64,000 bases of DNA, taken from positions 1 to 64,000 of the forward strand of contig JAUCBJ010002550.1 in the NCBI GenBank assembly GCA_032718475.1. The letters are read 5' to 3'. The stretch's first letter is position 1; each line of letters begins with the position of its first letter. Origin of the DNA: Nemertoderma westbladi. Lineage: Eukaryota; Animalia; Xenacoelomorpha. A program made the translations under genes and the position numbers. The notes beneath the pieces are model-generated. The model saw nothing but the letters and a program-made list of their open reading frames with translations. It did no database searches and had not been told where the DNA came from. Shown here in pieces: positions 21,505 through 41,967 of this stretch.

Positions 21505-21630
21505 TATAGAATTATATTCCCTAAATGCCGTGGATTTTCAAAATTTTATTTTATTCGGATTAACTTTGTAAAGATTGCTTTGAGTTCTCATTCGTATTGG
21601 TTCTATCTATTATGCATCTATCGGTCAAGT

Positions 21631-21717
21631 GGTTCAGTAGCTCAGTCGGTAGAGCGTTGGAAATTATGTGTGTAGTAGGTATCGAGTTCGAATCCTAGTA
21701 AGTGCGAATTATTTTTT
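21631..21717 (+). ncRNA. tRNA-derived Pol III-type cassette inside the LTR (not a functional tRNA)
   Basis: A box/D-arm TAGCTCAGTCGGTAGAGC at 21638-21655, B box GAGTTCGAATCC at 21684-21695, T6 run at 21712-21717. Acceptor and anticodon stems do not pair. Confidence 0.7.
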
Positions 21718-21913
21718 GTGCAGAATTTCAACTCATTTAAATTAACCGCTACAAATTAATTGCATTTATCTGTACCAATGAGACTGTAGTTATTTGATTG
21801 TAACCAATGTCGTGCAAGTTATATATTAGCTGGACCAATAGCTATCTTTAAAACCTTGTTAGAACCTATAGAACAATCGAGAATTTTCTCGATTGATTGC
21901 AGCACAAATTTGG

Positions 21914-22038
21914 TATATAAAGGTGCGATTTCGTTCATTAGTTCACTACTCAATCACTTCAATATTCACATCATTATTCTGTCGTGCTTAGTTTATTCTC
22001 AGATTACATTGTATTATAATTGTATCTTCTGTAATAAA
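21914..22038 (+). promoter_or_regulatory. Putative LTR Pol II core promoter and poly(A) signal
   Basis: TATATAAA at 21914-21921 downstream of several CCAAT boxes (about 21775-21840). Initiator-like TTAGTT about 25 bp later, AATAAA at 22033-22038. Confidence 0.5.
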
Positions 22039-24218
22039 GTCAGAATATTCCCTCAGTTTTCTATCTGTTTTACTATGGTTTCACTACGGTGAACAAACTC
22101 AGGGACAGGATGGCCAGCTAGAGATCGGGCCGCAGCAATGAACGGGAACATCACGGGAATGTAGACGAGAGACAACCCGCAATACCTTTAGAGTTATTCG
22201 CCCATCGCCTGAAAGGTTAGACAGCGTTTGATCCTTGCTACCTAAGTGTAAGACCAAAAGATCAACAGGTAGAAGTAGTGACACGCTGTAAGCCCAAAAT
22301 TACATCATAGGGACTGTACTGTCTTGATTCAGGAAAACCCACAGTAGACCTTCACATTCCTACGGGGGGAGAGCGCAGGCAGATACTAGTACGCAGATAG
22401 GACGTAGGCACACCGGTACAAGGCATACACATTGGTTAGGGTGCAGCAAACTGTACGCTTAACTCTTGCTAAGTACAGGTGCGCGTGCGACTATTTGCAG
22501 TACGACAGTGTCCATTGCATTAGAACTTGTAGGCTAAGGGGGTTGCTGTGTTTTCACCTGAATTGGGATTGTACCGTTCAGGCGGTAGGGCAGTTTACAC
22601 TAGGCGCAAATAAATTGAGGCTATCAGGGATATACTAACATCTACCGTGTCCCCGCCAACGCCCTAATAGGAAGTTACCTGGACTACCTGGGTGACTAAA
22701 ATTCTAGATAGGAGCCAGGATAGCTATTAGTACCCGTACGCCTACAGTAGTAAACTAACACATCTCTTCTTAGTATCAGGGACCTGGTACCTAAAATTGC
22801 CGAATTCTGGGCGTAGTATTAACCTTATGCCTGAATTTGAGTCCTGGAAATACGCAAGAGGGGAAGGAACCTTATCATTCGTGAGTATTGGACCTACAAG
22901 TTACAAAATTAGAATATTCGTAAAATGCACACCGTACCCAGTAATTATATATGTGAAGGAGCAAAACTGTTTTGACCGTTCAGAATTAACACACGCGCGT
23001 TAGAAATTATTTACACCTCGAAATATATAAAATTAACTTAGTCCGTACTGTGCTTTGCCCGCTAGTTAGACATCTCCAAATCTCTGCCTGTACCTAGCTA
23101 GCGTCCCTTCGCCCAACCATATAAATCACACCGCGGCAAAGTATACGAGCCTCTTAGTCCGTCAGTGAGTCAGCCTGATTTTAGGATTCGCTGCGCGGGA
23201 TTTTGTTTTATCGAAGTTTGTCTGCTCGTAGACTGTTTTCTGCCTCACCGGTTATAAGAGATCGATACTGCAATATATTCGCTTACTTAGGGTTTACTGT
23301 TTTGGTGAGAAGGTCGGATTTATGATTTGATTTACAAACTTTACAGTAGGATATTGCAGGTATTGTTACCGTCTCTTCCGATAGTAGGAATAGGCGTATC
23401 TCTTCAATTAGTAGGAATGTGTTTTACTGAACTACGGTTCGGTAGGACTAAAGTTTTTTGAAAAATTTGTATTTTGAGGTAAAATTTTGTATTTGATTAG
23501 CTAAGTGCTAATTTTTTGAAATAAAATTTGATTTGAACCGCGTGTAAAATATTTTTGGAATTGAATACCGGTGTTTAAAAGGGTTTAAATACCATATTGT
23601 ACCGGTACAAAATTTTCGTAAAGTAAAACCTAACTCTTTTGTTTTTCAGGATTCAGAACTCATTTCTAGACTGTAACGGGAGCAAGACCGTGTTTAGCAA
23701 GTTTGGGAGATAGATAACTCAACAACTTTGGTTGGGAAAATCGCGTTTCGTCCGCAACGTTAAAAACGGAAAGGTTCACGTTCGGTTTGTATCTGGGAAT
23801 CTGTTTTTCTGGAGAATTATTGGAGTGGGTGAGTTCGAAAAGTTGCATAAATAAGTTAGGCATTACCGTATTAGTTAAAATTATTGTGGGTTCCACTGTC
23901 TCAAGTATTTATGCATTCCGTACGATTTCTTTGTTCATTGCTGAATTAGTCCGTATTATTGTATTTAATTTACCTTTTGATAACGCATATCGTTATCCGA
24001 TTTATTTGTTGTAAAATTGGCCGCTAGGCTAATTTTATTATATACTTATTCCGTGACATTTATTTGCTGTAAAATTGGCCGTTTAGGCTAATTTTATCCA
24101 TCTGCTATAAAATCGGCCGGTAGGCTAATTTTATAAGACTGTAATTAGTACCGTTTTGTATAAATACGGTAAAACTCGATACTTTGACACTCACTTTACT
24201 TGACTTACAACTACCGAA

Positions 24219-27200
24219 ATGAGTGACAAACAAGACTATACGAAGAACACACAAACCGACTATGACTCGTGTGACGGAGATAAGTCAGCAGCGGAAGAAC
24301 AACAGGGGAAGACTCGCGAGCCTACCGAACCTACACCGTGTGCGTCACCAGTACATCCAACGGGAGTACCGGATGCCGTAGTACGAGGCGACGGCAGGAC
24401 CGAGGACTTTCTAACTGTTCCGCAACCTAGATATAGGGAAACGGAAATGGTAAGTTCAGCAGGAAGCACAGAAAGTGTGGTTAGAAGCGTCGGTGGATAC
24501 ATGGCGCATATTACCAGGAGTATTGGAGAAGGCCAACGCATATTAGACGGGTTGACCGCTCCGATGTCTCGATTCGAGTTCTACACCCTCCAGGTTAGAG
24601 TACAGAGTAAAGTATATAAGTCCGTAGATAATCTAGTTGGCCTACAAGATCTAGCTAGACAGAGACAGGACATGGATACTCAACTTAGAATCCTCGAGAA
24701 ACTAATGATCACTAGAGAGAAACTGATTCAGTTTAAGTCGACGATTAGACAGATACAACAGGAACAAGCGGACCAGTTGTTAGGTGAGTCAGTTTCGGAC
24801 GAATTATTGCAACCCGAGGAAGAACAGGAACTGTACCGACTGGATGGACAATTGAAACATCTGACGGACCACTTACGTATGTGCGGCGAAGACGTCGGCG
24901 ATTTGGAAACCGTGCCGGAATATACGAAAGAAACTTCACCCGTACGAATTGAATCGGCACCGGGAATACTGGACCAATCGTTGGTAAGTATTCGTAGCGA
25001 AATCTGCGAGGGAAGTATAGTCACGTCAGAAGTTGCTCGACAACAGCAAGAATTCCACCGACAACGACAAGAAATGGAAGAACAAGCTCAACTTCTAGTG
25101 ATGCAAGCAGCAGTAGAGGAAGAGAAGCTACGCGTTGCGAATATAGCAAGAATCTCTCATCTACAGGAACAAGCTGAATTAGAAGCAGCTGAAGTAGAAA
25201 GGTTAGAGTTAGACATTGCCCGACAAGCGGCAGCGGCAGCGGCAGAGTCAGAGCGACAAGCGGCAGCGGCAGCGGCAGAGTCAGAGCGACAAGCGGCAGC
25301 GGCAGCGGCAGAGTCAGAGCGACAAGCGGCAGCGGCAGCGGCGGAATTAGAACGAGACAGGTTAGTTTCGGAGGCGCGGGCCGAAATGAAAACACGGCAA
25401 ATAAAGGCTCAATCCGCTATACGACAAGCGGAGTTTGAGGCGCAACGACAACAAACGGAACAACGAGAGAAGACAGCTAAACTTCATTTCGAACTTGAGA
25501 AGAAGGCGAGAGAATTAGCGAACGCTGAGGAAGATCTGGATCAAAGGGCCCGCGATCGTTCGATGAGATCTCGTGACGGACATGATTTGGACCAGTTAGA
25601 GGTAAGACATCGCCAAATTCAGGAACGGAAGAAGGAAGGAAGCGTAGGAGCACCCGGACGGGAACGACAATTAGTAAAGGACGTGTGTCAACGATTCCCA
25701 CAGGTAACTCATATGTTTGCACCGGTTACGACTAAGGAACCTGTTTCGATTGCGGGTAGTAGTGATATTTCTCCTATCCATGGTGCGACGGAACACAGGT
25801 TTGTTATTCCGGACGAGTTTATACCGCCAAGAGCAACGTCGTCGCCCATTCCGAAAGTCAAGGTAAGTAACCCACCGATTACGGATCGTAGTAGTTTATT
25901 AACCGGACCCGCACTACTGACGACAAAACAGGTGAGTCCACCTTTGACACCTAAACCCGTTACACATTACGCTTATCCAATGACGTTTCGACCTACAAGG
26001 CCAGTTGTTTCAAATGCTGTCATTCGCCCACCGAACCAGTTTACATCGCAATCTACGACTTCGAGGAAGACTTGTGAGCCTACCGAACAACGAAGAACAG
26101 TGGAGACGCGACCATTCAACCAGTTTACATCGCAATCTACGACTTCGAGGAAGACTTGTGAGCCTACCGAACAACGGAGATCAGTGGACGATGTTCCGAA
26201 ACGAACCGTTAGAATTCGTACGACGCAACGAACGCGAGCACGTCGACCACCATATCCAGATGATAGTAGTACTTCGAGCGAATCGGATTACCCGAAACGC
26301 GAGGTATTTAGAACAGGGGCGGCCGATGAATATAAACGCGAGCGTTCAGACAACTCTTTTGCAGACAATCCTCCACAGAATACACCGACACAGAAGGCGT
26401 TACCACCAGCGGGCGCGATCGGTGCACAACAGTTCGCCGACATTGTCAACAAGTTGGCCCGGATTGAGGAACGTCTGGAGGAAGGTTACACCGACAGTTC
26501 GAGAAATTCCGAATTCGAACACAATAGACACCCGAAGGGACCACAAAGACCAGTACCTTCAAACCCCACAAGCGATCAGGGAAAAGCGCCAAGAAGGGAG
26601 AACATCAACCAGACTACCAACCAAGGACGCGAAACTCTGAACGTTGCCGAGGAGATAGCGAAATTCGCAGCCAGACAAGGATTGCCGGTACAACAACCAC
26701 CGAAGTTTTCCGGTAGCTCAAAACACTGGCATACCTTCGTAGACTATATCGAATCCCAGATCGCCGTGTGCGCCTTTACATCACGGGAGAAGTTCAATTA
26801 CCTGCTCCAAACGTTGTCAGGAGAACCTAAACGTTTGGCGGAGACCTTCGTCGGTGTACCAGACGCTTTCGAACTAGCGTACGATCGTTTGACTTCGATA
26901 TACGGAGGTACAGTGAGTATGGCCAGGTCAGTAATAGAAGAACTCTGTAAGGGAGGGGCTATCACTAAACCCGTCGACTTACTAAAACTGGCTGACGAGA
27001 TTAAGAACGCTATCACTACCTTAAGATCAATTGGACAACTTGATTACGGGAATACCCCTACAGTTCTATTAAAGATAATAGGACGACTCCACCATCGACT
27101 CCGTCGGGAGTGGAGGAAGGTCGAATACCAGCGGGAGGAGCGGGGAGGATTCTTAAAATTAGAAGATGTGTACCTTTTAATATCCAGGGAGGCGGTAGTA

Positions 27201-29030
27201 GAAACTCGATCTAACTATACCGACCAGCACATCGTGGCAGAAGGGATCACACTGCCATCCTCCAACCGACAAAAACCCCAGACAACATCCACAAAGACGG
27301 CCACTTACGCCACACCGACGGAATCACGACAATTCTCAGACGGTAATAGAGTATCTGCGCCCATTGGGACGAAACAGACGAGACAGCAACTCAGCACCGA
27401 CTTCAACGGCTGCCAATACTGCGAACATCTAGGTAAGCGGTATATTGGTCACAAGTTACGAGGTTGTCGACAATTTCGCGAGTTGAACTCGGAAGAACGA
27501 CGGCTGCAGATACGGCCACTGGACTCTTGTTGGCGGTGTACGCGACACGGACACGTCCGTAAGGATTGCCCAAATACCGACACTTGTCCATCCTGTGGAC
27601 GCAACCACGACATTCTGCTCCACACAGACAGCCACACGCCGACGAAACGCTTCGCCAGGGAACACCCAGAAGCAGCAGCGAGATGTGATGCGGCTTACCG
27701 AAAACGAGAATCGAAAACGACTCCAACCTTCGTGACCCATATTGAGGATTGCTTCTCAGAACAATCCGGATCGTCGGACGAAGAATCAGAAGACGACGAT
27801 GTATATTCCAATGGAGACGAACAACCGTCGATCGCGCTTCTAACCACTGACCAACTGAAGGGATTCAGTGTAATCCCGATTAAGATCACTGGCACAAAAG
27901 GGAGTAAGAGGATTTACGCGATTCTAGACTCAGCCTCATCTCACAGTTACGTGGATGAAAAGATAGCTGACGTCGTAACGGATCTCAGACAAGGTAAACA
28001 CGTCAGTTATACAGTAAGTAGTATGCACGGCCAGCGTGCAATACCAGTGACACGAGTTAAGTTGGACTTAGACTCTCTTCTTCCAAAATCGCAACACAGC
28101 GAGAGGGAGAGGTCTTTGTTACCCTTTAGAGATCTAACCTTTGCGGCCACGAAGGACTTTAGTAACCTACTAGGTCCAGTGCCGGAACAATCTCTGGAGG
28201 ACCGTAAGTATTTCAGACACCTTGGTGTACCTGAATGTCCTGTCAATTATAGATCGGTAGCAATGCTGATCGGGACGGACCAATTCAACCTACATCAGGT
28301 GTGGGAAACCAGACCATCGGCAGTTGTAGCGGGAAACGCATACGCCTGCAGAACGCCGATAGGGTGGTATACTCGAGCGCCTGTGCGCACACTAGACGTA
28401 AGTGACGAGGAAGACGATGTACAGAGTACATGTAGTTTATTAACTACAAATTCAATTCATTCCTTTTCACACGACGTGAACCATACTACACTACAGTCGA
28501 CAAAACACGACAGACGTGTAACTAGTATGATAAGTCACAAGGAGCAGCTAACCCACAAGGTGAGTTTAGAACTTGGGGAGAAGACGAGTCAGCTGGAGAT
28601 TCCATCGACGACAGATGATAGGCTTGCGAGTCTACCTACCCCAATAACCTCAACAGTGCCCGTCGATATCGATGATGACGCGTTGAGAAATCATCAGTTG
28701 GAACAAGCCGCCTTGGACAAAGAATTAACGGAGAAGACTATCAGGTGGTTAGAACAAGATACAGCTGAACCTGGTAGCTACGAACCTTGTATGTCGGAAC
28801 AGGAGAAACAATCTCTGAAGATCATGGAAGATACTATCCGCCAGACGAAAGACGGACATTATGAGGTAGGGATGTTATGGCGTAGCCAAAGTCCTAAACT
28901 TATAAACAACTATCCACTGGCTTTAAGACGTCTACACTCAATCCGACAACGTCTATTAAAAGACGAGAAAGCCCATCTGCAGTACAACACTCAGATGGAG
29001 ACGTATTTGACGAAGGGATACGCTATCTGA
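24219..29030 (+). CDS. BEL-1 Gag-protease polyprotein (ends at an in-frame TGA just before RT)
   Basis: Coiled-coil N-terminus and BEL gag core (PPKFSGSSKHW...EKFNYL). Three BEL-type Cys/His fingers (CQYC..H..C, CWRCTRHGHVRKDC, CPSCGRNHDILLH), protease ILDSAS, pre-RT motif YEVGMLW...NNYPLALRRL. Confidence 0.93.
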   Translation: MSDKQDYTKNTQTDYDSCDGDKSAAEEQQGKTREPTEPTPCASPVHPTGVPDAVVRGDGRTEDFLTVPQPRYRETEMVSSAGSTESVVRSVGGYMAHITRSIGEGQRILDGLTAPMSRFEFYTLQVRVQSKVYKSVDNLVGLQDLARQRQDMDTQLRILEKLMITREKLIQFKSTIRQIQQEQADQLLGESVSDELLQPEEEQELYRLDGQLKHLTDHLRMCGEDVGDLETVPEYTKETSPVRIESAPGILDQSLVSIRSEICEGSIVTSEVARQQQEFHRQRQEMEEQAQLLVMQAAVEEEKLRVANIARISHLQEQAELEAAEVERLELDIARQAAAAAAESERQAAAAAAESERQAAAAAAESERQAAAAAAELERDRLVSEARAEMKTRQIKAQSAIRQAEFEAQRQQTEQREKTAKLHFELEKKARELANAEEDLDQRARDRSMRSRDGHDLDQLEVRHRQIQERKKEGSVGAPGRERQLVKDVCQRFPQVTHMFAPVTTKEPVSIAGSSDISPIHGATEHRFVIPDEFIPPRATSSPIPKVKVSNPPITDRSSLLTGPALLTTKQVSPPLTPKPVTHYAYPMTFRPTRPVVSNAVIRPPNQFTSQSTTSRKTCEPTEQRRTVETRPFNQFTSQSTTSRKTCEPTEQRRSVDDVPKRTVRIRTTQRTRARRPPYPDDSSTSSESDYPKREVFRTGAADEYKRERSDNSFADNPPQNTPTQKALPPAGAIGAQQFADIVNKLARIEERLEEGYTDSSRNSEFEHNRHPKGPQRPVPSNPTSDQGKAPRRENINQTTNQGRETLNVAEEIAKFAARQGLPVQQPPKFSGSSKHWHTFVDYIESQIAVCAFTSREKFNYLLQTLSGEPKRLAETFVGVPDAFELAYDRLTSIYGGTVSMARSVIEELCKGGAITKPVDLLKLADEIKNAITTLRSIGQLDYGNTPTVLLKIIGRLHHRLRREWRKVEYQREERGGFLKLEDVYLLISREAVVETRSNYTDQHIVAEGITLPSSNRQKPQTTSTKTATYATPTESRQFSDGNRVSAPIGTKQTRQQLSTDFNGCQYCEHLGKRYIGHKLRGCRQFRELNSEERRLQIRPLDSCWRCTRHGHVRKDCPNTDTCPSCGRNHDILLHTDSHTPTKRFAREHPEAAARCDAAYRKRESKTTPTFVTHIEDCFSEQSGSSDEESEDDDVYSNGDEQPSIALLTTDQLKGFSVIPIKITGTKGSKRIYAILDSASSHSYVDEKIADVVTDLRQGKHVSYTVSSMHGQRAIPVTRVKLDLDSLLPKSQHSERERSLLPFRDLTFAATKDFSNLLGPVPEQSLEDRKYFRHLGVPECPVNYRSVAMLIGTDQFNLHQVWETRPSAVVAGNAYACRTPIGWYTRAPVRTLDVSDEEDDVQSTCSLLTTNSIHSFSHDVNHTTLQSTKHDRRVTSMISHKEQLTHKVSLELGEKTSQLEIPSTTDDRLASLPTPITSTVPVDIDDDALRNHQLEQAALDKELTEKTIRWLEQDTAEPGSYEPCMSEQEKQSLKIMEDTIRQTKDGHYEVGMLWRSQSPKLINNYPLALRRLHSIRQRLLKDEKAHLQYNTQMETYLTKGYAI

Positions 29031-32000
29031 ATGACTAACCCGGAGCGAGTGACCGACCAAACGTATTACTTGCCACATCACTACGTGAGACACCCCGACA
29101 AACCAGACAAAGTACGTGTAGTCAATGACTGTGCGGCTCTGTTTGAGGGAATGTCCCTCAATAGTGAGTTGATGGATGGACCGAACATGAATAATTATCT
29201 TATGGGGGTGATTATGCGCTTCCGTCAGCGTCAAGTAGCCTTTACTTGCGACGTTGAAGCGATGTTTCACCAAGTAAAAGCGTTAGAGCGAGACAGAGAC
29301 AGTTTGCGGTTCCTCTGGTATCCGGAAGGAGATTTAAGTCTACCACCGGCGACTTACCAAATGCAAGTTCGCGTTTTCGGTGCCAGAGACAGCCCAAATT
29401 GTACGATGTACGCCCTAAAGCAGGCCGCTAGGGATCAGAAACATCTATATGACCCAGAGATAATTAGAATTGTGGAGCGTGACTTTTACGTTGATGACGG
29501 ATTACAGAGTTGCGACACAGTAGAACGTGCTACAACAGTAGCACATCAATTACGGGACTGCTTGGCGGGCGGAGGTTTTAACCTCACCAAATTCGCCTCA
29601 AACAGTGCCGAATTAGTAGACTCATTCGGAACTACTGAGCGTGGAGGTGGTGACATAGACCTAGAGTTCGAACCACTACCGACGACCAAGGTGTTGGGGC
29701 TCTTTTGGGACCCAAACACAGACAACTTTCGAGTGAAGGTGAGACTGGACAGTCAAGGGAACACACTGACAAAGAGATCATGCTTGTCAAAGTTGAGCCG
29801 ATTGTTCGATCCGTTAGGATTCATCAGTCCAGTGATACTGCAAGCCCGCATTTATATGCGCAGTATATGGAAGGATGGACTAACTTGGGACGAGCCGATC
29901 TCATCAGACCAAGTGGACTTATGGAAGACCTGGGAGGCGGAATTATCTTCGCTAGAGGATTATTCCATACCCAGGGTTTACTTTCCATTGCAAAGTACAT
30001 TTCCTGACAACTTGGAACTACACTGTTTTTCTGACGCCAGTGACAACGGTTTTGGTGTGGCAGCGTACCTGCGCAGACAAGTAGAATCAGACGAGTTCGA
30101 TGTTTCGCTCATTACTTCTAAGGCTAAGACCATGCCTACTAAGTATATGACGACACCACGAGCCGAGCTACAAGCCGCAACCCTGTCAACCACCATCGTG
30201 AACCTCATACAGACAGAACTACAGTCGAGTTTACAGATATTTTATTGGACTGACGCGACGTTGGTTTTATTTTACATAAACAACGACACACTCGAATTCA
30301 AGACATTCGTTGCTAACCGTCGCGCGGAAATTCTAGACCGTTCAATAAAAGGGGATTGGCGACATTGTCCCGGACCACAAAACCCAGCTGATATTGCGTC
30401 GCGAGGAATGATGCCTGAGGAATTCTGTAAACCGGAGAACAAAGAGTTTTGGCAACACGGACCCCAGTTCTTGCAGAAATCGACACAAGATTGGCCTCCG
30501 TTATACGACAACAAGTCCAACACTATTCCCAAGGACGCCGAAATCAAGAAACCAAAAAAGGGGAAGACAAAGAAAAAGACGACGGCGGCGAAACTCAAGA
30601 AAAAACCGAAGGCGAAATGGAAAGATATAACTTCAAAGGTCAAGAGAGGAAGACTTGCGAGCCTTTCTACACCAGACATATCGCCAGACGGTCAACCAGA
30701 CACGTTACCAGACGGTCAACCAGACACGTTACTAGACAGCCAACCAGACATTTTGCCAGACATATCACAAAATGTTCCACCAGACGCTAGTAACACACTG
30801 ACAAACAGTAAAGCCGCAGTTTCCCTATTGGAGCGGCCTTCTATTGACAAACAACCAGATACGTTACTAGACGTATCGCCAGACACATTACTAGACAGTC
30901 GACTAGACACTAGTAATGTATTGACTAACAATAAAGCCGCAGTTTCCCTATTGGAGCGGCCTTGTATTGACAAACTACCAATTTTGACACACTTGAGCAA
31001 CCATAAGCACGGTGAAACCTCATGTATTACAGATGTGGGTAGTACCTACGCTAATGTAAATACAGGTGTTACTTTGCGCTCAAGAGACATACCGAACTTG
31101 CAACCTATGTTGAAACCTGGGATTAATGTCGGCAGGAAAATAAGTTTACCGAAACCTGCTGACCCCATAGAGTTCAAACCACCATTAACGATCGACTTAC
31201 AAAGTACCGACAATCAAGGTAAGAAGACAAAGAAGGACAAATTACTTGTAGACCCCGACGGATCAACAGTCAACAAGGGAATACTTACCGGCGGACCCGT
31301 GGGCCCTTCTAGTAATTCAAAACCTTCCAAGTTCTCCATTGACTTACCTGATGACGTCACAAATACTTACGTCGACCGTATCGTAAACTTAACAGACTCT
31401 TGGTCAAACGCTTGCCGAAAATTAGCGTGGATTGTACGTTTTGTACAATACGTTAAAGGCAAACGTGACTTTACACGTCGACTTACATTGGCTGAGATTG
31501 ACAGGTGTGAGATTAAATTAATTCGCCATTACCAACTGCGATATTTCGCGCGCGAATTCACATCTATAAATCAAGGTCAACCAATCAAGTCACCGATACT
31601 GAGTTGGAGTCCGATTATTTATAATGGCTTGATTTGTCATAAATCTCGGCTTCAAAACATTGACTTTAACACAAACTTTAGGTACCCAATAATAATACCG
31701 CAACATCACGAACTACAACGTGCAATGATACTGGACGCACATTTACATCTGAAACACGCTGGAAGACACCACTGTCTTTCCTACTTACGTACTAGATTTG
31801 TATTAATTAGACCCAGTAAAGCATTAAGTTCAGTGACACGTACGTGTATTATTTGTAAAAAGGTACATTCTAGAATAGGTACCCAAGAAATGAGTGAACT
31901 ACCACAAGCACGACTTCAAGCATTCAGACCACCTTTTACAGAGACTGGAATTGATTGCTTTGGTCCCATACATACGAAACGTGGACGTATACTAGTAAAA

Positions 32001-32384
32001 CGCTGGGGACTGATTTTCACATGTATGTCCAGTAGGGCAGTTCACATTGAACGTGTGATGGATCTTTCCACCAACGCGTTTATACTAGCACTGCGGCGAT
32101 TTATCGCTAGACGCGGACTAGTAAAATGCTTGTACTCAGACCAAGGGACAAACTTTGTTGGTGCTCGGAATGAGATTGCTAGAGCCTTTAAGAAATTAGA
32201 TCATGATCAAATCTCGAACGAACTGCAACCTCACAAGATTGTTTGGAAGTTCAATCCTCCAGATAGTCCTTGGAGAGGCGGAGTCTGGGAGAGACTGATT
32301 AGATCTATCAAAGACAGCAATGGCAAAGGTCATTCCAGTAAACCACATATTAACAGACGACCAACTGACAACATTGTTTGTTGA
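29031..32384 (+). CDS. BEL-1 RT-RNase H-integrase (same frame as gag, frameshifted near 32310)
   Basis: YYLPHH, KVRVVND, SLNSELMDGP, DVEAMFHQV, FYVDD, FDPLG, HCFSDAS, TPRAELQAA, WTDA, NPADIASRG. Integrase HHCC, GIDCFGP, SDQGTNFVGA, GGVWERLIRSIK. Confidence 0.94.
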   Translation: MTNPERVTDQTYYLPHHYVRHPDKPDKVRVVNDCAALFEGMSLNSELMDGPNMNNYLMGVIMRFRQRQVAFTCDVEAMFHQVKALERDRDSLRFLWYPEGDLSLPPATYQMQVRVFGARDSPNCTMYALKQAARDQKHLYDPEIIRIVERDFYVDDGLQSCDTVERATTVAHQLRDCLAGGGFNLTKFASNSAELVDSFGTTERGGGDIDLEFEPLPTTKVLGLFWDPNTDNFRVKVRLDSQGNTLTKRSCLSKLSRLFDPLGFISPVILQARIYMRSIWKDGLTWDEPISSDQVDLWKTWEAELSSLEDYSIPRVYFPLQSTFPDNLELHCFSDASDNGFGVAAYLRRQVESDEFDVSLITSKAKTMPTKYMTTPRAELQAATLSTTIVNLIQTELQSSLQIFYWTDATLVLFYINNDTLEFKTFVANRRAEILDRSIKGDWRHCPGPQNPADIASRGMMPEEFCKPENKEFWQHGPQFLQKSTQDWPPLYDNKSNTIPKDAEIKKPKKGKTKKKTTAAKLKKKPKAKWKDITSKVKRGRLASLSTPDISPDGQPDTLPDGQPDTLLDSQPDILPDISQNVPPDASNTLTNSKAAVSLLERPSIDKQPDTLLDVSPDTLLDSRLDTSNVLTNNKAAVSLLERPCIDKLPILTHLSNHKHGETSCITDVGSTYANVNTGVTLRSRDIPNLQPMLKPGINVGRKISLPKPADPIEFKPPLTIDLQSTDNQGKKTKKDKLLVDPDGSTVNKGILTGGPVGPSSNSKPSKFSIDLPDDVTNTYVDRIVNLTDSWSNACRKLAWIVRFVQYVKGKRDFTRRLTLAEIDRCEIKLIRHYQLRYFAREFTSINQGQPIKSPILSWSPIIYNGLICHKSRLQNIDFNTNFRYPIIIPQHHELQRAMILDAHLHLKHAGRHHCLSYLRTRFVLIRPSKALSSVTRTCIICKKVHSRIGTQEMSELPQARLQAFRPPFTETGIDCFGPIHTKRGRILVKRWGLIFTCMSSRAVHIERVMDLSTNAFILALRRFIARRGLVKCLYSDQGTNFVGARNEIARAFKKLDHDQISNELQPHKIVWKFNPPDSPWRGGVWERLIRSIKDSNGKGHSSKPHINRRPTDNIVC

Positions 32385-32877
32385 AATCGAGGCAATACTA
32401 AATACTAGACCAATAGTATTAGTACCCGATGACAAACAATCTCAGTTTGCTTTAACACCAGCACACCTGCTTATGCAGGCACCGACCACATTGACGCCGA
32501 TTTCCACTCCAATGGAAAGCGATAGCTACGGTAGAAAAGCGTGGAAAATCACGCAACTACTAGCTAACAAATTCTGGGAAATATGGCAAAACCATTATTT
32601 GCCCTCTATTTCTGCCAGAACAAACTGGTACAATAACACCCGCGCATTAAAGCCGGGAGATCACGTGCTGTTGGCAGAAGTGAATCTAAAAAGACGCTTC
32701 TGGATAACAGGTGTCATTTTAGCCACACATCCATCTATGGATGGAGTGACAAGAACTGTGACGGTACGGACAATTGACGGTCGTACAGTAGACAGACCGA
32801 CTCAACGTCTCGTACTTCTTGAAGAGACTCGTAACGAGTCTGGAGACTACAAATCTCCACCTAATACTAGTAAATAA
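32320..32877 (+). CDS. BEL-1 integrase C-terminal part (after the frameshift)
   Basis: EIEAILNTRP, LTPAHLL, FWEIWQNHYL, W..GVI....PSMDGVTRTV.VRT: the typical BEL integrase C-terminus. Confidence 0.92.
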   Translation: MAKVIPVNHILTDDQLTTLFVEIEAILNTRPIVLVPDDKQSQFALTPAHLLMQAPTTLTPISTPMESDSYGRKAWKITQLLANKFWEIWQNHYLPSISARTNWYNNTRALKPGDHVLLAEVNLKRRFWITGVILATHPSMDGVTRTVTVRTIDGRTVDRPTQRLVLLEETRNESGDYKSPPNTSK

Positions 32878-33538
32878 TTAGGAGTTTACAAATAGATTTC
32901 CACGTACCTGTACACCGTAGTAAGGACAGCGGTAGAATTCCATTGTCTTTATATGTGAACATTGAGGGTAGTACCCTTATGTGTCACATAGGAGCGGGAT
33001 TTGTAGGTATAAGAAATGGAATTCTACTTGGAACTCACAATATTGAGACATTTTCGAAATTTTAGACAATCCATTTGGATTTGAAAAAATTTTAAAATTT
33101 TCTCCAGTGAATAGATTTCAGGGTACAGTCGGGTGGAACTTAAAATTAGAGAAACAAGAGGAAGACTTGCGAGCCTTTCTTAAAATTTAATTAAAATTTT
33201 ACACGGTCTTGTTTCAATAAGTTACATCAAATAAATAGACTCCCCTATATTTATTACTAATTCTTGACTGCTTATTTTCTGATAATAGTTTGGGATCAAA
33301 AAGTGAGTATTTTAGACTCACAGCCAGTTTAGCCCAAATTCGTTTTTATTTCGGCAAAAAATTTTAGATAAGAAGCAGCGTGTCATTAAAGAAACCCTAG
33401 ATCTTAGGCTATGGGTAGGAGGTTAGAGCGTTGTCGAAGCCCAAAAGGCAGACGAAACTCTCACGTCTCCTCACAACTAACCACAAACTCTGTTGTATTC
33501 CCTCTAGTAGTAATGATTATGTAACTACACCTCTAATT

Positions 33539-35241
33539 ATGGAGAAAGGGATACAAAGAGAGCCGAGATGGGGATATGATATCCAAGAGGAGGCGGCAGC
33601 TTCATTCGAACGATTTGGAGCAAAAGACTACACTATATTTGGTATAAAGGAATTATCAGAAAGTACAGCGAAGCTCGCAAAGACAGCAATGCCTTTACTC
33701 GAGCAGGATTTAGTATATTTCGAGACGTGTATCTTCGCTGTGCGGGATCTCTTATCGAAAGACCATCTATGTTTACATTGTTACCCTATGAAGGAGAACG
33801 TATCGTGGAGATTACGGATGAATCACGGCAGACGCGTGCGCCTATCGGTCACCTTGGTGATGAATTCGAAGTAACTACTACGATCGCCGACGATCCTTTA
33901 GAGGAACTTCTTGAGATTGAAAGGAACCTCCCGAAGAAATCTCAGACGGAGATTCGACAACTTGAAGCAACAGATGCTATAGTTTGTATACAACCTTCAG
34001 AAACCTACCAACCCATAGACCCAGATGATTACGATTATAGTATGGGAGGAAGCGCTCGACCGATTGGAGATTTTATATACGAACGAGTGTGGTACCCTGC
34101 CAATACGATGTGTAGTAAATGTGGCGTCGCTGGACATCATATGACAAAGTGCAGTGGAAAGCACATTACTACGACTCAGCTAATCTGTGGATGGTGTGGG
34201 GATCAAGGGTCTCATACCTTTTATACTTGCTGGAGATTTATGGCTCAATGTACTTACTGCAATATAAAGGGACATCGAGCATCTGAATGCCAACTGAGAG
34301 ACATACCTTATGAACACGAATCTGTAAAACTCGTGAGGAAGTTATTTGATGAGTGGGAAGATTTAGCCGACGAACATGTATCGGCACAGAGAAGACGGTT
34401 TCCGATGAGAGCGCATCTCGGATTTTGGGCGGTAAATCCCCAGACGATGATGTCGGAAGGATACATCTCCGCTATGCCTCAATATGACGAACTTATCGAG
34501 GTTGTCGATATTTTGCCCCACGACAGCGGATTCCGAGTGGTGCGCGAGTATCTGTTACAAATTCACCCGGATAACAAAAACACGTGGAATTTTCAGAAAG
34601 TCGTTAATCGGATTACGTATGGTGAATTCGATCGTTTCCGAACTGAAAGGCGGAACAAGGGAGCTTGGTTAACCGTCGCATGGGCGTACCGAGCCGCGTT
34701 TTACCACAAACGTATACGAGCGAGCGTATTCGAGGAAGAAGAGGTCCTAGAGGCGACGAACATATCAGCCACTCCGGTTGCGCCGTCTGCACGTCACCCT
34801 CGGGAGGACGGGCAGGGTAGGATCATACGGGTCCAGAAAGTGGGCCAACAATTGAAGAAAATTATTAATGTAGAAGAACGCAAGGGAGTTGAGCCGACCA
34901 TTCGAGTTACTCGGGATACGGTATCACTTCCAAGAGAACCAGTAGGAGGATCGGGACATACACCAGCTGATCAACAGGGGGCGCAAGCTACTCTCGGGTC
35001 TGCGTCGTCCGCTTCTCACGCGTTCCCAGACGTTCTACCAACTGTAGTGACGACTGATCGGTCACGAGGAATTGGTCGAGGTTTTGGGATGCCAAATAGA
35101 CGAATTTGCGAGGAAATAGTCGCACCGTCTCTCAACGTCCCAAGTAAACCAGTGACTCGCCCCACGAGTCCCATATCGCGAGCAAAGTCACCTGTGCGCA
35201 GTTTTCGAGGACGCGGCAGGGCTCGATCAACTAAACGATAA
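33539..35241 (+). CDS. BEL-1 ORF3: triple CCHC zinc-knuckle protein with an Arg/Pro-rich tail (probable frameshift near 33727)
   Basis: CSKCGVAGHHMTKC, CGWCGDQGSHTFYTC, CTYCNIKGHRASEC; ends RGRGRARSTKR. The ATG at 33539 joins the 33727 frame if 2 nt are removed at GAGACGTGTAT. Confidence 0.75.
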
Positions 35242-36145
35242 AAGGGAGGGCAAGGGTGGACGGAAGACTCGTGAGCCTTTCTTATGATTTGTGATTTATT
35301 TGAATTATATGTTTTATATTTAGAAAGTTTGTATTCTGAAAGGGACTCATATTTAGTAAAAACTTATATTTTATATTTGTGCTTATTCCAAACTTATGCA
35401 ATTTGTATTGTTCCGAATTTATGAAATTTAGAAAGTTTAGAAGGAACTTATATTTGAAAGATTTATGTTTCATATTTGAGATGCAAAGGTTTATATTATT
35501 CTAAACTTATGCAGTTTATATCTATATTTAGTAAGACTACCCAAAAGAGAGTTTATATTTGTAAGAATTTATATTTATATTTGTAATTATTTCGAACTTA
35601 TACAATTTATATTATTCCAAACTTATGCAATTTGTATTGTTCCGAATATTATGCAATTTATATTTTATAAGCAGTATTTGTACCTAAAGAGAAAGTTTTA
35701 TAGACAGAAAATTTTGTGCTCAGAAAGACTCATATTTGTAATTATTCCAAACTTATGCAATCTACATTTAGGTACGAAAGTATTTGTAATTACTTGAATT
35801 TATGCAATATTTGGGATGCAATAGTAGATGGAAGACTCGCGAGCCTTTCTTATTGTTTTCATTTATTTGTATTTGTAATTGTTTGAATTTATGCAATATC
35901 TGAGATGCAATAGATTTATATTGGTGAATTTAATTTAGATTTATATTGTACTTACTTAGCAAAGCCTTAAATACGTAAAGTTTGAATTTGTAATTATTTT
36001 GTATCGAATCATTACGTAGAAAGGAAGTATTGTTTGAAATTTAATTGTAAATATGTAAGTACGCCCTAAGTATTTTATAGTTTGATTGATTATTGGTGAA
36101 AACCGTATATTTTATGCACGATAATATCCTGTTTTCATGGAGCGG

Positions 36146-36286
36146 TATAGAATTATATTCCCTAAATGCCGTGGATTTTCAAAATTTTATTTTATTCGGA
36201 TTAACTTTGTAAAGATTGCTTTGAGTTCTCATTCGTATTGGTTCTATCTATTATGCATCTATCGGTCAAGTGGTTCAGTAGCTCAG
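36146..36286 (+). repeat. 3' LTR of BEL-1, part 1
   Basis: Matches 21505-21645; preceded by a short purine-rich GGAGCGG (weak PPT). Confidence 0.92.
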
Positions 36287-37500
36287 CCCAAAAACAGTTG
36301 GCCTCGAGGTGCGTCCTAGGTGCGTCCTAGGCTAAGCTGAGGTCCGTCCTAGGCAGAGGGCTAAGGTACGTCCCAGGCAGAGACAAGTTTGATTGGTTGT
36401 TCCACTTGCTAGCTAGGGAATTCCTTCTTGAATCCGTCATAGTAAGCGAGGCCTGTGATTGGCTAATTCAGAATTAATGTGCTGTTTGTTATTGTAAATT
36501 TTCTGGATGCCGAGAATGGATTGTAAAGTAGTATTAATTAAGAATTAATTCAAATGTAACTAAATATTACGTTACGGAAAAAATTTACAAAAAATATGTG
36601 AATGCTCCATTTTATATTTTTTATTTGTATTCTTGTTTAAATCAAACAAACAGGTAAATAATGAGTTGTGCGGTGTAGTGTAAATTATCATTGTTTGGTT
36701 GTGTGGCAACTGGAGTAGCAGGCTGGGTATTTGGGTAGCCCCAGTTGTGCGGGCCTGGACAGGGTTTCCATCCAATGCTAACATGTATTGCAACTGTATA
36801 ATGTTTAGAATGCCAGTGAAACAAAATAGGAGGGTCCTTAGTAGTCAACTGGAGTGGCAGCCAATATCGTAAATATTCATTCCAGAACATGTATTTATTT
36901 AACATGGGTTATATGCAGTTCATTAGTTGCACAGAAAAGGAGACACATAGTATGTTGAAGGTGGAGTTGATTCTATTGGTTGTCTGACTCGACGGCTGGG
37001 ATATCCCAGTGAGCGTATACAATAGCAGGGCTTCCCTCTAATAATGGTATCACAATGCTACTATAGTATATTATTTTTCATGGCTTGCGTTTATGTGCCT
37101 ATTAATCAGTAGTATTTAGTATTGTAACTGTAACAACTGTGTTGTTAATAATATTTCTTATAATTGTATATATTTGCTGCTACCTGTAATACATTTTACA
37201 ACTTTAATTATTTAATTAATTAGTTAACCTAATTTTAACTTATTAATTGGATATTCCTGTTTTGATTTCTACATAAAATAACCGTATATAAATTGCAGGT
37301 TTAGTTACATTTTAATTTTATAGTTTCGGTTTGTAATTTTTCACTTTGTCATACAAACTTAAATTTGTAAAAAAAGCTCTGTAAGTTAAATACAGTAATT
37401 TTAAAAAATAAGCAATGCATAACACAGATACACAAACAGGGGGGGGGGGGGGGGGGGCAGTGGAAAAGTGTACCCGGGCCGCTATGTCCTAAATTAGAGA

Positions 37501-37575
37501 TCAAGATGCCATGAAGCAAGTTATTTTGCTATTACGACTCCTAATAGCAAAATAACTTGCTTCATGGCATCTTGA
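37501..37575. repeat. Perfect 34-bp inverted repeat with a 7-nt spacer
   Basis: TCAAGATGCCATGAAGCAAGTTATTTTGCTATTA (37501-37534) and its exact reverse complement (37542-37575). Confidence 0.95.
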
Positions 37576-37816
37576 CGCAGTGGATAGCTGCCTTGTATTG
37601 TACATAGCCAACCAGTCTCTCTCTCTATCTGGGTAAACCAAGCACATACTGTAGACTCCATTATGTGGTTTACTTGTGCTAGTAGTAGATGCCACCAGGT
37701 CAAGGCTTGGTTATTGGCCTTATTGGTCAAGGCCTGCTTTACTCTGTATACATTTGACTTATCACAGCAGACTCAGAAATTAGTCATCAATGTAACATAA
37801 ATGATATTATATTCAG

Positions 37817-39034
37817 GGTGTTCGGACACTTCCCCCCCGGACACTTCCCCCCCGGACAGTTCCCCCCCCCGCTCAAGTAGGACACTTCCCCCCCGGACAC
37901 TTCCCCCCCGGACAGTTCCCCCCCGCTCAAGTAGGACACTTCCCCCCCGGACACTTCCCCCCCAGACACTTCCCCTCCCCCCCGCGGACACTTCCCCCCC
38001 GACTGTTCTTAACTTCGCACATTCGTATTTTTCATTTTGTAAGGTAAACGGACCGCTTGTATCCAGATAAGTTGTATCCAATTTTCCTTACGTAGCTCAG
38101 ATAGTGATCTTTTGCATCCTGATTTTACATTTTATATCCAAGTTTTATTTATGGGTTTTATCAATGCAATTACATAGTATTGTTTGCTAATCTTTAAACG
38201 ATTAATTATATTAGATGACCTATAAATTCCATCCACCGAATGATATACTGTTTTTATTAACTATAGAATTATAATAATTAATTGTTTTAATTATAGGTAT
38301 TATTATGTAATAGTCTTCTTCAAATTGTAGCAGATGGGGATGAATATTATTGTTGCAATCAAAATTATACCTCTCTAGGGTAAAATCGACATGCGTCGAC
38401 CTGTATTCTGTGTTCAGCATTACATACAGTATTAATATACATATTACTACTATACATACTATATAGATATTATACACACTACATATTAAATTTCCTGGTT
38501 ACTTGCGATATTTTTAATAGGATTTTGTTGAATTATATAATATTGTAGTAATTTATATATTAAATTGGTTAACATTCAATACAGCTCCTACTTTAGGCTT
38601 AGTCAATTTATTATCTGATGATACAAACATGAATTAGTTATTTCAAAGTGGTCTTAAGTCTTTCACCACGGGCACTCAGCGAAATACCGGGTTATGGGGG
38701 CGATAACCCCCAAGAAATGAAGCGGGGGGGTTTGGGGGCGGCAGCCCCCAAGAAAAGAAGCGGGGGTTTGGGGGCGGCAGCCCCCAACAAAAGAAGCGGG
38801 GGTTTGGGGGCGGCAGCCCCCAATTAAAAGAAATTAAAAGAATTAAAGGAATTAAAAGAGAAACAAACAAAATTTGACTATAAAAATGTTTCTTTTATAA
38901 TTTTGAAAAAACTTGTCTAGATACAACTTGTCCTGTAACCATCTTTAACTTTTGTTTATTGCTTTGATGCACCCAGATTAATTTTAACACTTTAACTGGG
39001 GGGGAAGTGTCCGGGGGGCAAGTGTCCTAGATCC
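37817..39034. mobile_element. Non-autonomous Mutator-like (MULE) element with repeat-built TIRs
   Basis: 9-bp TSD TATATTCAG at 37808-37816 and 39035-39043. Ends GGTGTTCGGACACTT... and ...AAGTGTCCTAGATCC. Tandem GGACACTTCCCCCCC units at the left end, inverted copies at the right end. Confidence 0.75.
38695..38822. repeat. Four tandem GC-rich hairpin units (about 37 bp)
   Basis: TTGGGGGCGGCAGCCCCCAA three times plus one variant, separated by AAGAAGCGGGGGT. Confidence 0.85.
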
Positions 39035-40059
39035 TATATTCAGTTATCTGGTCTTTTGTGGTATTCCACTGTCATTTAATAGCTACTTATTGGTCTTTAA
39101 ACAATGTCGAAGTCTCACCATTTTAAAGGATTGAAGTTTTACCGCGACAAGTTCATAGCACTTGCTAACAGCCCGAGTGGGAGTAGAAATCTGTACGTAA
39201 CTTTACAGCGTTTGATAACATAACTTTACAGTGTTTGAACCCATAACTTCTCAGTTTTTGATCCCATAACTTTAGGCCTAAAGTACCGTTTATCATTTAT
39301 TATATTACAATTTTACCGATGTACAATTTTACCGTAATGTAAATAGTTTTTATTATATTACAATATAATAATATTCTGTATTTTAGAAAAGACCTACGAT
39401 TTTATAATAGCTCAATTTATTATAATAGCTAATATGATTTCAATATAATGGTATGTATAACGGTATACCTCTTTTTGTGCCATTTTGGTACATTGTTTTA
39501 ATTACATAAACGTTTCACTGCAGTTCATTTGTGTAATGAGTAATGATTTATTTAATCAATAAATATTTATCTACTAATTATTAAAAGCAAAGAAATATGT
39601 AATATTCAAATTTATATTTTCCCTTAATTTCAAACCCTCTTTTTTATTTTCCTTCCCTTTCGTCTTTATTATCTTTTTTAACGCAACATGTGGGCGTGGG
39701 GTGGGCCTTCGCGCCGCACAAGAGTGAGTTAGTAAGCCTAGATAACAATATATTTAGCACCACCTAGTGGCGGGCCAAGGAAATTGTGCGACGCCAGAAA
39801 CTGCCTCATTTATTTGAGACCAAAGATTAGACCGACTGACGACAGACCGTCAGACAATCAGACAGACCTACACGAGGTTGAGATAGTGATACTTGTAAAC
39901 TAAGATCTCTAACTTTCTTGACTTTTTCTTTCCCTACCCTTCTTTTGCTTTTCTCCTTTCCTTTCTTTTCCCCTTTTCTCTTGCCCCTCTTTTTCCTCCT
40001 TTGTTATAATTTTTTCTTCCCCCCTCCGATCAGGCTATCTTACCCCAGCCCTAGCTCAG

Positions 40060-41824
40060 TTGGTAGAGCGTTGGAAATTATAAGTGTAGTAGGTATCGAG
40101 TTCGAATCCTAGTAAGTGCGAATTATTTTTTGTGCAGAATTTCAACTCATTTAAATTAACCGCTACAAATTAATTGCATTTATCTGTACCAATGAGACTG
40201 TAGTTATTTGATTGTAACCAATGTCGTGCAAGTTATATATTAGCTGGACCAATAGCTATCTTTAAAACCTTGTTAGAACCTATAGAACAATCGAGAATTT
40301 TCTCGATTGATTGCAGCACAAATTTGGTATATAAAGGTGCGATTTCGTTCATTAGTTCACTACTCAATCACTTCAATATTCACATCATTATTCTGTCGTG
40401 CTTAGTTTATTCTCAGATTACATTGTATTATAATTGTATCTTCTGTAATAAAGTCAGAATATTCCCTCAGTTTTCTATCTGTTTTACTATGGTTTCACTA
40501 CGGTGAACAAACTCAGGGACAGGATGGCCAGCTAGAGATCGGGCCGCAGCAATGAACGGGAACATCACGGGAATGTAGACGAGAGACAACCCGCAATACC
40601 TTTAGAGTTATTCGCCCATCGCCTGAAAGGTTAGACAGCGTTTGATCCTTGCTACCTAAGTGTAAGACCAAAAGATCAACAGGTAGAAGTAGTGACACGC
40701 TGTAAGCCCAAAATTACATCATAGGGACTGTACTGTCTTGATTCAGGAAAACCCACAGTAGACCTTCACATTCCTACGGGGGGAGAGCGCAGGCAGATAC
40801 TAGTACGCAGATAGGACGTAGGCACACCGGTACAAGGCATACACATTGGTTAGGGTGCAGCAAACTGTACGCTTAACTCTTGCTAAGTACAGGTGCGCGT
40901 GCGACTATTTGCAGTACGACAGTGTCCATTGCATTAGAACTTGTAGGCTAAGGGGGTTGCTGTGTTTTCACCTGAATTGGGATTGTACCGTTCAGGCGGT
41001 AGGGCAGTTTACACTAGGCGCAAATAAATTGAGGCTATCAGGGATATACTAACATCTACCGTGTCCCCGCCAACGCCCTAATAGGAAGTTACCCGGACTA
41101 CCTGGGTGACTAAAATTCTAGATAGGAGCCAGGATAGCTATTAGTACCCGTACGCCTACAGTAGTAAACTAACACATCTCTTCTTAGTATCAGGGACCTG
41201 GTACCTAAAATTGCCGAATTCTGGGCGTAGTATTAACCTTATGCCTGAATTTGAGTCCTGGAAATACGCAAGAGGGGAAGGAACCTTATCATTCGTGAGT
41301 ATTGGACCTACAAGTTACAAAATTAGAATATTCGTAAAATGCACACCGTACCCAGTAATTATATATGTGAAGGAGCAAAACTGTTTTGACCGTTCAGAAT
41401 TAACACACGCGCGTTAGAAATTATTTACACCTCGAAATATATAAAATTAACTTAGTCCGTACTGTGCTTTGCCCGCTAGTTAGACATCTCCAAATCTCTG
41501 CCTGTACCTAGCTAGCGTCCCTTCGCCCAACCATATAAATCACACCGCGGCAAAGTATACGAGCCTCTTAGTCCGTCAGTGAGTCAGCCTGATTTTAGGA
41601 TTCGCTGCGCGGGATTTTGTTTTATCGAAGTTTGTCTGCTCGTAGACTGTTTTCTGCCTCACCGGTTATAAGAGATCGATACTGCAATATATTCGCTTAC
41701 TTAGGGTTTACTGTTTTGGTGAGAAGGTCGGATTTATGATTTGATTTACAAACTTTACAGTAGGATATTGCAGGTATTGTTACCGTCTCTTCCGATAGTA
41801 GGAATAGGCGTATCTCTTCAATTA
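40060..41824 (+). repeat. 3' LTR of BEL-1, part 2
   Basis: Matches 21646-23410 with only a few substitutions visible. Confidence 0.92.
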
Positions 41825-41967
41825 ATAATACACCCTGTAGTTACCACGTAGAACCTATACTATACTATAATACATCCTGTAGTTACCACGTAGAGCCTAT
41901 ACTATACTATAATACATCCTGTAGTTACCACGTAGAGCCTATACTATAATACATCCTGTAGTTACCA
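41825..41967. repeat. Last ~3.5 monomers of the satellite (array boundary)
   Basis: Same core resumes after the TSD and ends at ...GTTACCA (41967). Confidence 0.95.

Follow-up and report, generated by a model that had tools for sequence, protein, structure and literature searches.

ORF3, located between the integrase gene and the 3' LTR of a BEL/Pao element, is a real, constrained, orphan accessory gene of its family. A structured repeat dispersed through the same element, which the original prediction had missed and which we newly noticed, is a candidate target of its product. The element lies in the window, by which we mean the whole stretch of DNA analyzed (64,000 nucleotides of contig JAUCBJ010002550.1 from Nemertoderma westbladi, assembly GCA_032718475.1). 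Feature coordinates are collected in Table 1.

Table 1. Features of the ORF3-bearing element, in order of position (hairpin copies, splice acceptors, and the slippery site are predictions)
Feature	Position	Strand	Remarks
5' LTR	21505..23410	+	1,906 bp; TA..TA termini; preceded by 5-bp TSD (21500-21504) within the 37/42-bp satellite
Splice-acceptor-like site, 5' leader	23605..23649	+	Predicted; branch-like motif, pyrimidine tract, YAG; rank 2 of 411 YAG sites (simple score)
gag-protease frame	24219..29030	+	DUF1759, triple Cys-His box, ILDSAS/LIG protease motifs; in-frame stop at end (this copy)
Hairpin copy 1	24306..24327	+	gag
Hairpin copies 2 and 3	26064..26169	+	gag, within 84-bp duplication
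Hairpin copy 4	28616..28637	+	G-U replaces A-C; both strands score about equally
pol frame	29031..32877	+	RT (YVDD), RNase H (PF05380, DAS), low-complexity linker, integrase DD(49)E, DUF5641
Hairpin copy 5	30647..30668	+	pol linker
Hairpin copy 6	31289..31310	+	pol linker; two pairs altered on both sides
Hairpin copy 7	31760..31781	+	In the zinc region of integrase; closed by A-U, loop not YGYG
Hairpin copy 8	33159..33180	+	Intergenic, upstream of ORF3 acceptor
Splice-acceptor-like site	33463..33510	+	Predicted; tandem YAG 33507/33510, ~30 nt 5' of ORF3a ATG
ORF3a	33539..33874	+	Frame A, 111 aa, strong start context, Cys/His cluster in second half; no family
Hairpin copy 9	33677..33698	+	ORF3a; weakest (19.5 bits), non-YGYG loop
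Slippery-like heptamer	33706..33712	+	Phased for -1 shift from frame A to B; weak candidate
ORF3b	33769..35241	+	First ATG gives 490 aa; acidic at the N terminus, then three knuckles, an orphan central domain, and a basic RG/RS tail
Hairpin copy 10	33826..33847	+	ORF3a/ORF3b overlap; G-C closing pair
Three tandem CCHC zinc knuckles	34111..34290	+	Pfam and pattern
Hairpin copy 11	35261..35282	+	3' untranslated region
Hairpin copy 12	35829..35850	+	3' untranslated region
3' LTR	36146..41824	+	Interrupted by nested 3.77-kb insertion (36287-40059); TSD 41825-41829

The third gene lies in a BEL/Pao element

The element is young. Its two LTRs differ at 4 of 1,906 positions, a 5-bp TSD surrounds the whole element in a satellite array, and its length is 16,547 bp (~16.5 kb) once the nested insert is subtracted. 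As in other BEL/Pao elements, the Pfam domains PF03564 (DUF1759), PF05380 (E = 8e-43), PF17921, and PF18701 follow one another in that order, and the BEL/Pao motifs (triple Cys-His box, YVDD, DAS, DD(49)E, and DUF5641) are present; the triple Cys-His box of Gag ends in the BEL/Pao pattern CX2-4CX3HX4H. A search with the RT-RNase H region returned 462 proteins at E <= 1e-100, with PF05380 in all among the matches listed. The best 120 of the 462 were 39 to 45% identical, and the relatives named among the matches listed came from molluscs, echinoderms, cnidarians, a hemichordate, and fish. Sinbad, a BEL/Pao element, has the same Gag-PR-RT-RH-IN order, triple Cys-His box, YVDD, DAS, and DD(49)E (PMC554778, partial text), although the first Gag finger of the present element, CX2CX9HX4C, is unusual and longer than the BEL/Pao pattern in the available part of that paper.

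According to the ICTV, Belpaoviridae are 4.2 to 10 kb in size with LTRs of 0.2 to 1.2 kb (PMC8742986), whereas the element described here, at 16.5 kb with 1.9-kb LTRs, lies above both ranges. It also departs from BEL/Pao elements in its TA..TA LTR ends, its lack of a TGG-type PBS directly after the 5' LTR, its non-env third gene, and its dispersed hairpin motif. In BEL/Pao elements, the 5' LTR is followed by an 18-nt PBS for tRNA-Arg/Gly; judged on the TGG start alone, no such site was found at that place here (past 23410).

Two breaks interrupt pol in this copy: an in-frame stop (29028-29030) and a change of frame (near 32299-32384). An in-frame ATG directly follows the first of these (29028-29033), and relatives are uninterrupted at that point; the stop between gag-protease and RT may be either a lesion or a stop-restart. 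The linker between RNase H and integrase (30500-31400) is ~300 aa long, of low complexity, and partly tandem-repeated. It has no counterpart in the alignments of close RT relatives and contains two of the hairpin copies.

ORF3 comprises two overlapping frames and three zinc knuckles

The original prediction placed a third ORF in the env position, and this was borne out: the integrase frame stops at 32877, and the 3' LTR begins at 36146. The 3,269 bp between integrase end and 3' LTR compare with 52 to 482 bp in the 8 control BEL loci readable for both. The single ORF of ~570 codons that had been described at 33539-35241, however, proved to be two overlapping frames, A (ORF3a, 111 aa) and B (ORF3b, 490 aa from the first ATG), of which B is open from 33580 to 35241 (553 codons). 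The three tandem knuckles are present at 34111-34152 (CX2CX4HX4C), 34186-34230 (CX2CX5HX4C), and 34249-34290 (CX2CX4HX4C), with Pfam matches to zf-CCHC (E = 0.005) and zf-CCHC_4 (E = 0.003) that are both below the gathering score. Also found as described were the acidic N terminus (24 D/E versus 9 K/R in 114 aa) and the basic RG/RS tail (11 K/R and no D/E among the final 36 aa; 8 RG/RS/SR dipeptides among the final 60). No membrane segment was detected, the top 19-residue Kyte-Doolittle mean being 0.78 for the long frame (B) and 1.07 for the short one (A). Gag does have its own triple Cys-His box, with a spacing unlike that of the ORF3 knuckles. The middle domain of ORF3b comprises 150 aa; its supposed helical nature was left unconfirmed by single-sequence models, which had mean pLDDT values of 37 and 44. 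No convincing leucine-rich export signal was found in ORF3.

We considered and rejected two other identities. An env-like glycoprotein does not fit the hydropathy maxima given above, the single N-x-S/T in each frame, the location of 9 of 12 Cys residues in knuckles, or the absence of any env family match. A second Gag does not fit either, since ORF3 is without DUF1759, matches no BEL locus at E <= 1e-3, and differs from the element's own Gag in knuckle spacing. As a matter of anatomy (knuckles and no membrane segment), the earlier description of ORF3 as an accessory nucleic-acid-binding protein and not an envelope is well supported; its function (export, chaperoning, or anti-silencing) is putative.

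In the second half of ORF3a (33728-33850), a Cys/His cluster precedes an arginine-rich stretch that lies in the overlap with ORF3b. ORF3a may be a small protein that binds metal or RNA.

The two-frame layout looks native

The frameshift at 33727 might have been a lesion specific to this copy, but this idea was not supported. Were it a lone frameshift in this copy, most sibling contigs would carry a high-depth indel. Among the best 12 of 26 indels, no well-supported sibling indel falls within 33539-35241, and one contig, from run X5, spans 33691-33840 ungapped. Sibling variants at 33611-33625 leave the protein of frame A unchanged but alter that of frame B, whereas from 33837 onward frame B is favored. 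Similarly, a codon model trained on the element's gag-pol favors frame A to about 33760-33800 and frame B beyond. Given the absence of well-supported sibling indels, the variant pattern, and the codon model, the two-frame layout looks like the family norm.

Frame B might be reached by a -1 shift from ORF3a, by a second acceptor, or by leaky scanning to the ATG at 33769, and two separate proteins are as likely as a transframe fusion of ~570 aa. There is one phased slippery heptamer in 97 codons, where ~0.25 would be expected at the gag-pol rate (7 in 2,691); the sequence behind this heptamer (33706) forms no frameshift-stimulating stem better than those of shuffles (z = 0.15). ORF3 is predicted to be made from a spliced subgenomic RNA; the candidate acceptors at 33507 and 33510 rank 5 and 7 of 411 YAG sites by a crude score and are followed by an ATG in strong context. 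None of the listed sequencing runs is recorded as RNA; one (X5), guessed to be RNA, reads through these acceptors unspliced and is uninformative on splicing.

ORF3 is retained and constrained in sibling copies

The stretch was found in 5 of 9 listed sequencing runs, from 4 studies, and four runs were compared, one per study. ORF3 is present in siblings from three DNA studies, and the three DNA runs (one organism) cover 30 of 30 bins. Integrase and intergenic region are joined on single sibling contigs, as are the intergenic region and the start of ORF3a. Around ORF3, neither terminal repeats nor a TSD of another element were found, which argues against the separate insertion that the original prediction had named as a way to be wrong.

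Neutral evolution, also named there, is contradicted by coding constraint in the form of a synonymous excess and avoidance of indels. We scored the best 40 of 132 substitutions (at least 5%) and the best 12 of 26 indels. Among these 40 substitutions, 11 of 19 in ORF3b are synonymous, versus 32% expected for transitions (P = 0.019), as are 8 of the 13 that segregate among siblings (P = 0.029); these P values, like those that follow in this section, are indicative only, because the contigs are collapsed related copies and not independent lineages. For the ORF3a frame, the same 40 include five listed variants, three of them synonymous. All 12 indels fall in the noncoding flanks, outside ORF3 (P about 8e-5 if uniform).

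Among 32 of 5,653 pieces, five distinct divergent ones (79 to 85%) cover the knuckles and middle domain (33969-34609) with 173 substitutions and no gaps, whereas the divergent noncoding pieces are gapped in five of five cases (Fisher P = 0.008). Excluded from this count were one core duplicate, one pol-end piece, two acidic-part pieces (whose net gaps, 3 and 6, preserve the frame), and five tail pieces (a net 1-base gap in two, none in three). We conclude that this BEL/Pao family carries ORF3 as a conserved third gene under coding constraint.

Searches for ORF3 homologues

Protein searches with ORF3b yielded no homologue among 127 and 71 candidates, and a comparison with 1.84 billion representatives gave two matches, one generic double-knuckle protein and one repeat peptide. 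Pattern matches in metagenome and viral contigs (137 and 8) included none, the best PDB match had an E value of 0.76, and Atlas look-alikes all scored <0.9 with low recognition. A HEPN-like resemblance of ORF3b (Atlas 0.76 to 0.79) was dismissed as being at chance level. ORF3a matched neither Pfam nor any of 80 other BEL loci.

These 80 control loci (636 kb; RT identity, 33 to 52%) served for both the gene and the hairpin motif. The knuckle-bearing ORF3 was found in none of the 56 with a located integrase end, many of which have short downstream sequence. Knuckle ORFs located 3' of the integrase in nine control loci (L074 duplicates L073) were all rejected as the gag of a following or collapsed copy, and six other downstream ORFs have neither knuckles nor a match to ORF3. 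A paper on the Cer elements of C. elegans reportedly describes extra ORFs in the BEL-like nematode elements Cer7 and Cer13.

In the literature covered, with Repbase, Dfam, supplements, and most subscription papers outside its scope, we found no account of a knuckle-bearing third gene or of dispersed covarying hairpins in LTR elements. The available parts of PMC2774666, PMC6238403, and PMC7264820 do not mention a knuckle-bearing third ORF. The extra BEL/Pao ORFs that have been reported are env-like (PMC8742986; also PMC3118150 and PMC13524379, partial texts). The plant LTR elements Grande, RIRE2, and Retand carry conserved orphan ORFs of unknown function between pol and the 3' LTR, but these are env-like or antisense, unlike ORF3, and the words zinc, CCHC, and RNA-binding are absent from the available part of the review of plant extra ORFs that describes them (PMC7264820).

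A dispersed motif likely folds as an RNA hairpin

A 17-nt word occurs in 7 exact copies, all on the sense strand and all within the element, where 0.10 would be expected allowing up to 3 mismatches. Relaxing the word gave 12 copies of a 22-nt stem-loop motif, from 24306 to 35850, which are spaced 0.1 to 2.5 kb apart across the whole internal region (a span of 11.5 kb) and are absent from the LTRs. The pattern was picked after the repeats had been seen, so controls matter. With the loop and closing pair left free, the window has 11 hits, all in the element, and the closing pair is complementary in 11 of 11; for the same relaxed pattern in the 80 other BEL loci, it is complementary in 8 of 22 (Fisher P = 5e-4).

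In the 10 distinct copies, the closing pair takes all four Watson-Crick types (UA in 6, AU in 2, CG in 1, and GC in 1), and the second stem pair is swapped from AU to GC. The third stem position is A-C in 8 of the 10, G-U in one, and A-U in one; A-C and G-U have a common wobble geometry. Across the stem alignment, 82.5% of cells pair, versus 35 to 54% for slid partners, and the covariation score of the alignment was reached by 0 of 500 shuffles; the copies are not independent, since several are products of duplication and two code for an identical peptide. Read on the sense strand, the loop is YGYG in all but 2 of the 12, and the copies occupy two codon phases as well as noncoding DNA. Of the best 40 of 132 sibling variants, one lies in the five covered copies; it alters a loop pyrimidine and keeps YGYG.

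A covariance model scores the 12 sites at 19.5 to 31.5 bits (by construction), and no other site exceeds 12.3 bits in the window or 14.8 bits in the 636 kb of other BEL loci. The motif is absent from the other BEL, gypsy, and LINE-like elements of the window and matches no Rfam family. Folding energies are unremarkable on the sense strand (z of -1.2 to +1.0), and the antisense strand does at least as well; because they are ordinary on both, the strand of the hairpin is argued from the loop bias alone. On the pattern of compensatory changes, the 22-nt motif likely folds as an RNA hairpin. The ORF3 gene and the motif co-occur in this one family, and neither was found in the control loci, of which 56 of 80 could be judged for ORF3.

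ORF3 as a candidate reader of the hairpins

The explanation that we prefer, tentatively and by analogy with known systems, is that ORF3, itself likely made from spliced RNA, binds the YGYG hairpins of its own element and so brings about the export or protection of unspliced genomic RNA. Since the internal region contains 12 consensus-like splice donors and several acceptors, full-length RNA would need help in leaving the nucleus unspliced. Splicing to the acceptor at 33507/33510 would give a subgenomic ORF3 mRNA, and the basic tail would take the protein to the nucleus. There, with the motif folded as a sense-strand RNA hairpin, two knuckles would read the Gs that stand second and fourth in its loop, and hairpin-bound ORF3b would export or protect the unspliced genomic RNA. 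With 12 sites on the genomic RNA versus 4 on the subgenomic RNA, selectivity would depend on dose.

We propose that ORF3b binds the hairpins because an orphan knuckle gene and a knuckle-type ligand occur together here and in no control locus. In HIV-1 NC, paired CCHC knuckles clamp the second and fourth bases, both G, of the SL2 and SL3 tetraloops (PMC7599994, partial text), and a YGYG loop presents this G2/G4 geometry, so that it is the type of ligand bound by retroviral knuckle pairs. Tandem CCHC knuckles and Gs at loop positions 2 and 4 are common to both systems, but the ORF3 knuckles belong to a separate 3' gene, where an orphan domain follows them, and do not close Gag; the loops are scattered across 11.5 kb. 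As a counterpoint, Gag's own knuckles could equally read the loops.

Cer1 of C. elegans, a Ty3/Gypsy-type element, offers a second comparison. It encodes CERV, a spliced accessory protein whose cysteine finger is required for export of unspliced genomic RNA, and ORF3 resembles CERV in being an element-encoded accessory protein of similar size with a cysteine finger, although for ORF3 splicing is predicted only (PMC10309623, partial text). CERV differs in sharing exons with gag, in having a C4-type loop instead of CCHC knuckles, and in having no defined RNA target in the available part of the same paper (PMC10309623). We found no sequence link between ORF3 and CERV (for PDB, see the E value above). 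HIV Rev acts through one clustered response element and not through dispersed hairpins. Unlike that element, the motif is not confined to unspliced RNA, because 4 of the 12 copies lie downstream of the ORF3 acceptor.

Somewhat unlikely, but the strongest of the alternatives, is that the hairpins are packaging or assembly signals for the triple Cys-His box of Gag and that ORF3, a separate accessory nucleic-acid chaperone or counter-defense protein, has no part in reading them. NC classically binds G-rich tetraloops (PMC7599994, partial text), the first Gag finger has its unusual CX2CX9HX4C spacing, and the copies run throughout the internal region at intervals of 0.1 to 2.5 kb, with none in the LTRs. 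However, the four downstream copies would tag the subgenomic RNA for packaging too, and other BEL loci lack the motif, a spaced-word scan having found no comparable dispersed word beyond tandem or collapsed repeats. RNA viruses have dispersed packaging signals, and dispersed covarying hairpins in a retrotransposon recall them, whichever protein binds.

We consider it unlikely that the hairpins recruit a host RNA-binding factor for export, localization, or decay protection while ORF3 acts elsewhere, for example, as an antagonist of a small-RNA or exosome pathway. Simple retroviruses do rely on RNA elements that the host reads, both for export and for protection from decay (PMC10309623, partial text), and the genomic RNA here has a very long 3' region. 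The Atlas look-alikes of the knuckle region also include HEXBP-like and Air2-like cellular multi-knuckle proteins, all at <0.9. A host-read motif might, however, be expected in the host's other elements, and neither the BEL, gypsy, and LINE-like elements of the window nor any Rfam family contains it.

A duplex DNA reading is more improbable still. In it, the motif would be a quasi-palindromic site, and ORF3 would be a VANC-like, family-specific anti-silencing factor acting on the provirus. CCHC knuckles typically bind single-stranded nucleic acid, a duplex reader gives no reason for closing-pair covariation through four pair types, and the LTR promoter is without any copy. CpG o/e is 1.0 to 1.3 in the coding parts of the element compared with 0.39 in the window's second BEL element, but the gypsy element likewise has 1.07. 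An accessory gene together with many co-oriented family-specific motifs is common to this family and VANDAL elements; VANC targets are short motifs of this kind that spread via tandem duplication (PMC5735166, partial text), and several of the hairpin copies lie within local duplications. The VANC motifs, however, are nonpalindromic duplex sites in noncoding tandem arrays of a plant DNA transposon (PMC5735166, partial text), whereas the motif described here covaries like a stem and is mostly within coding sequence.

It is very improbable that ORF3 is a passenger, i.e., a nested or captured gag-like or host fragment without a role in the element's cycle: no homologue links it to a function and the locus collects damage (the two breaks in pol and the nested insertions in the 3' LTR), but it has no flanking TSD or terminal repeats, shows the synonymous excess and indel avoidance described above, contains two family motifs with others on both sides, and has a GC content of 0.48 and CpG o/e of 1.26, compared with 0.49 and 1.20 for gag.

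To return to the preferred explanation, in which ORF3 reads the hairpins, the element may, with the same reservation, represent a "complex" BEL/Pao element with its own protein-RNA code, a knuckle regulator coating the genomic RNA via a dozen hairpins, independent of Rev and CERV. If so, BEL/Pao elements would reach complex-retrovirus organization without an envelope, and an export or anti-decay system, with a compact new protein-hairpin pair, would have evolved independently of Rev and CERV. Replication of Belpaoviridae is poorly understood according to the ICTV (PMC8742986). Mechanisms that export or protect unspliced RNA are known for few LTR retrotransposons, and this family provides the two components of a system that can be tested, namely, a knuckle module of 60 residues and a hairpin of 22 nt whose naturally occurring compensatory variants act as built-in controls.

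Other features of the element and the window

The LTR ends at 21505, 23410, 36146, and 41824 are TA..TA instead of TG..CA, and a PBS-shaped word lies ~105 nt inside the end of both LTRs (near 23304). At the start of both LTRs (21625-21700 in the 5' LTR, with its counterpart in the 3' LTR) is a tRNA-like stretch with look-alikes of a Pol III A box and B box. ARAGORN called no tRNA in this stretch, which is possibly a captured SINE head that is now part of the LTR. The insertion at 36287-40059 is noncoding, lies exactly within the A-box-like word, and has an 8-bp duplication without obvious terminal inverted repeats; tRNA-gene-targeting elements such as Dada are a possible lead. A second-level insertion lies inside it at 37808-39043 and shows a 9-bp duplication as well as imperfect ends, C-rich and G-rich; the 3.77-kb insertion also contains a perfect 37-bp hairpin (37501-37575).

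The insertion site of the ORF3-bearing element is a long 37/42-bp satellite array (1-21500 and 41825-41970). A LINE-like RT fragment lies in this array on the minus strand (6917-8626), and its end recurs near 58956. The second BEL element, on the minus strand at 47420-52285, is internally deleted, with no integrase frame found; its RT is ~31% identical, its CpG o/e is 0.39, and it is without the hairpin motif. The window further contains a 68-bp tandem array at 43345-45290, a Ty3/Gypsy-type pol on the minus strand at 53632-57084 (region 52500-58700), and a broken RT on the plus strand at 60675-62284.
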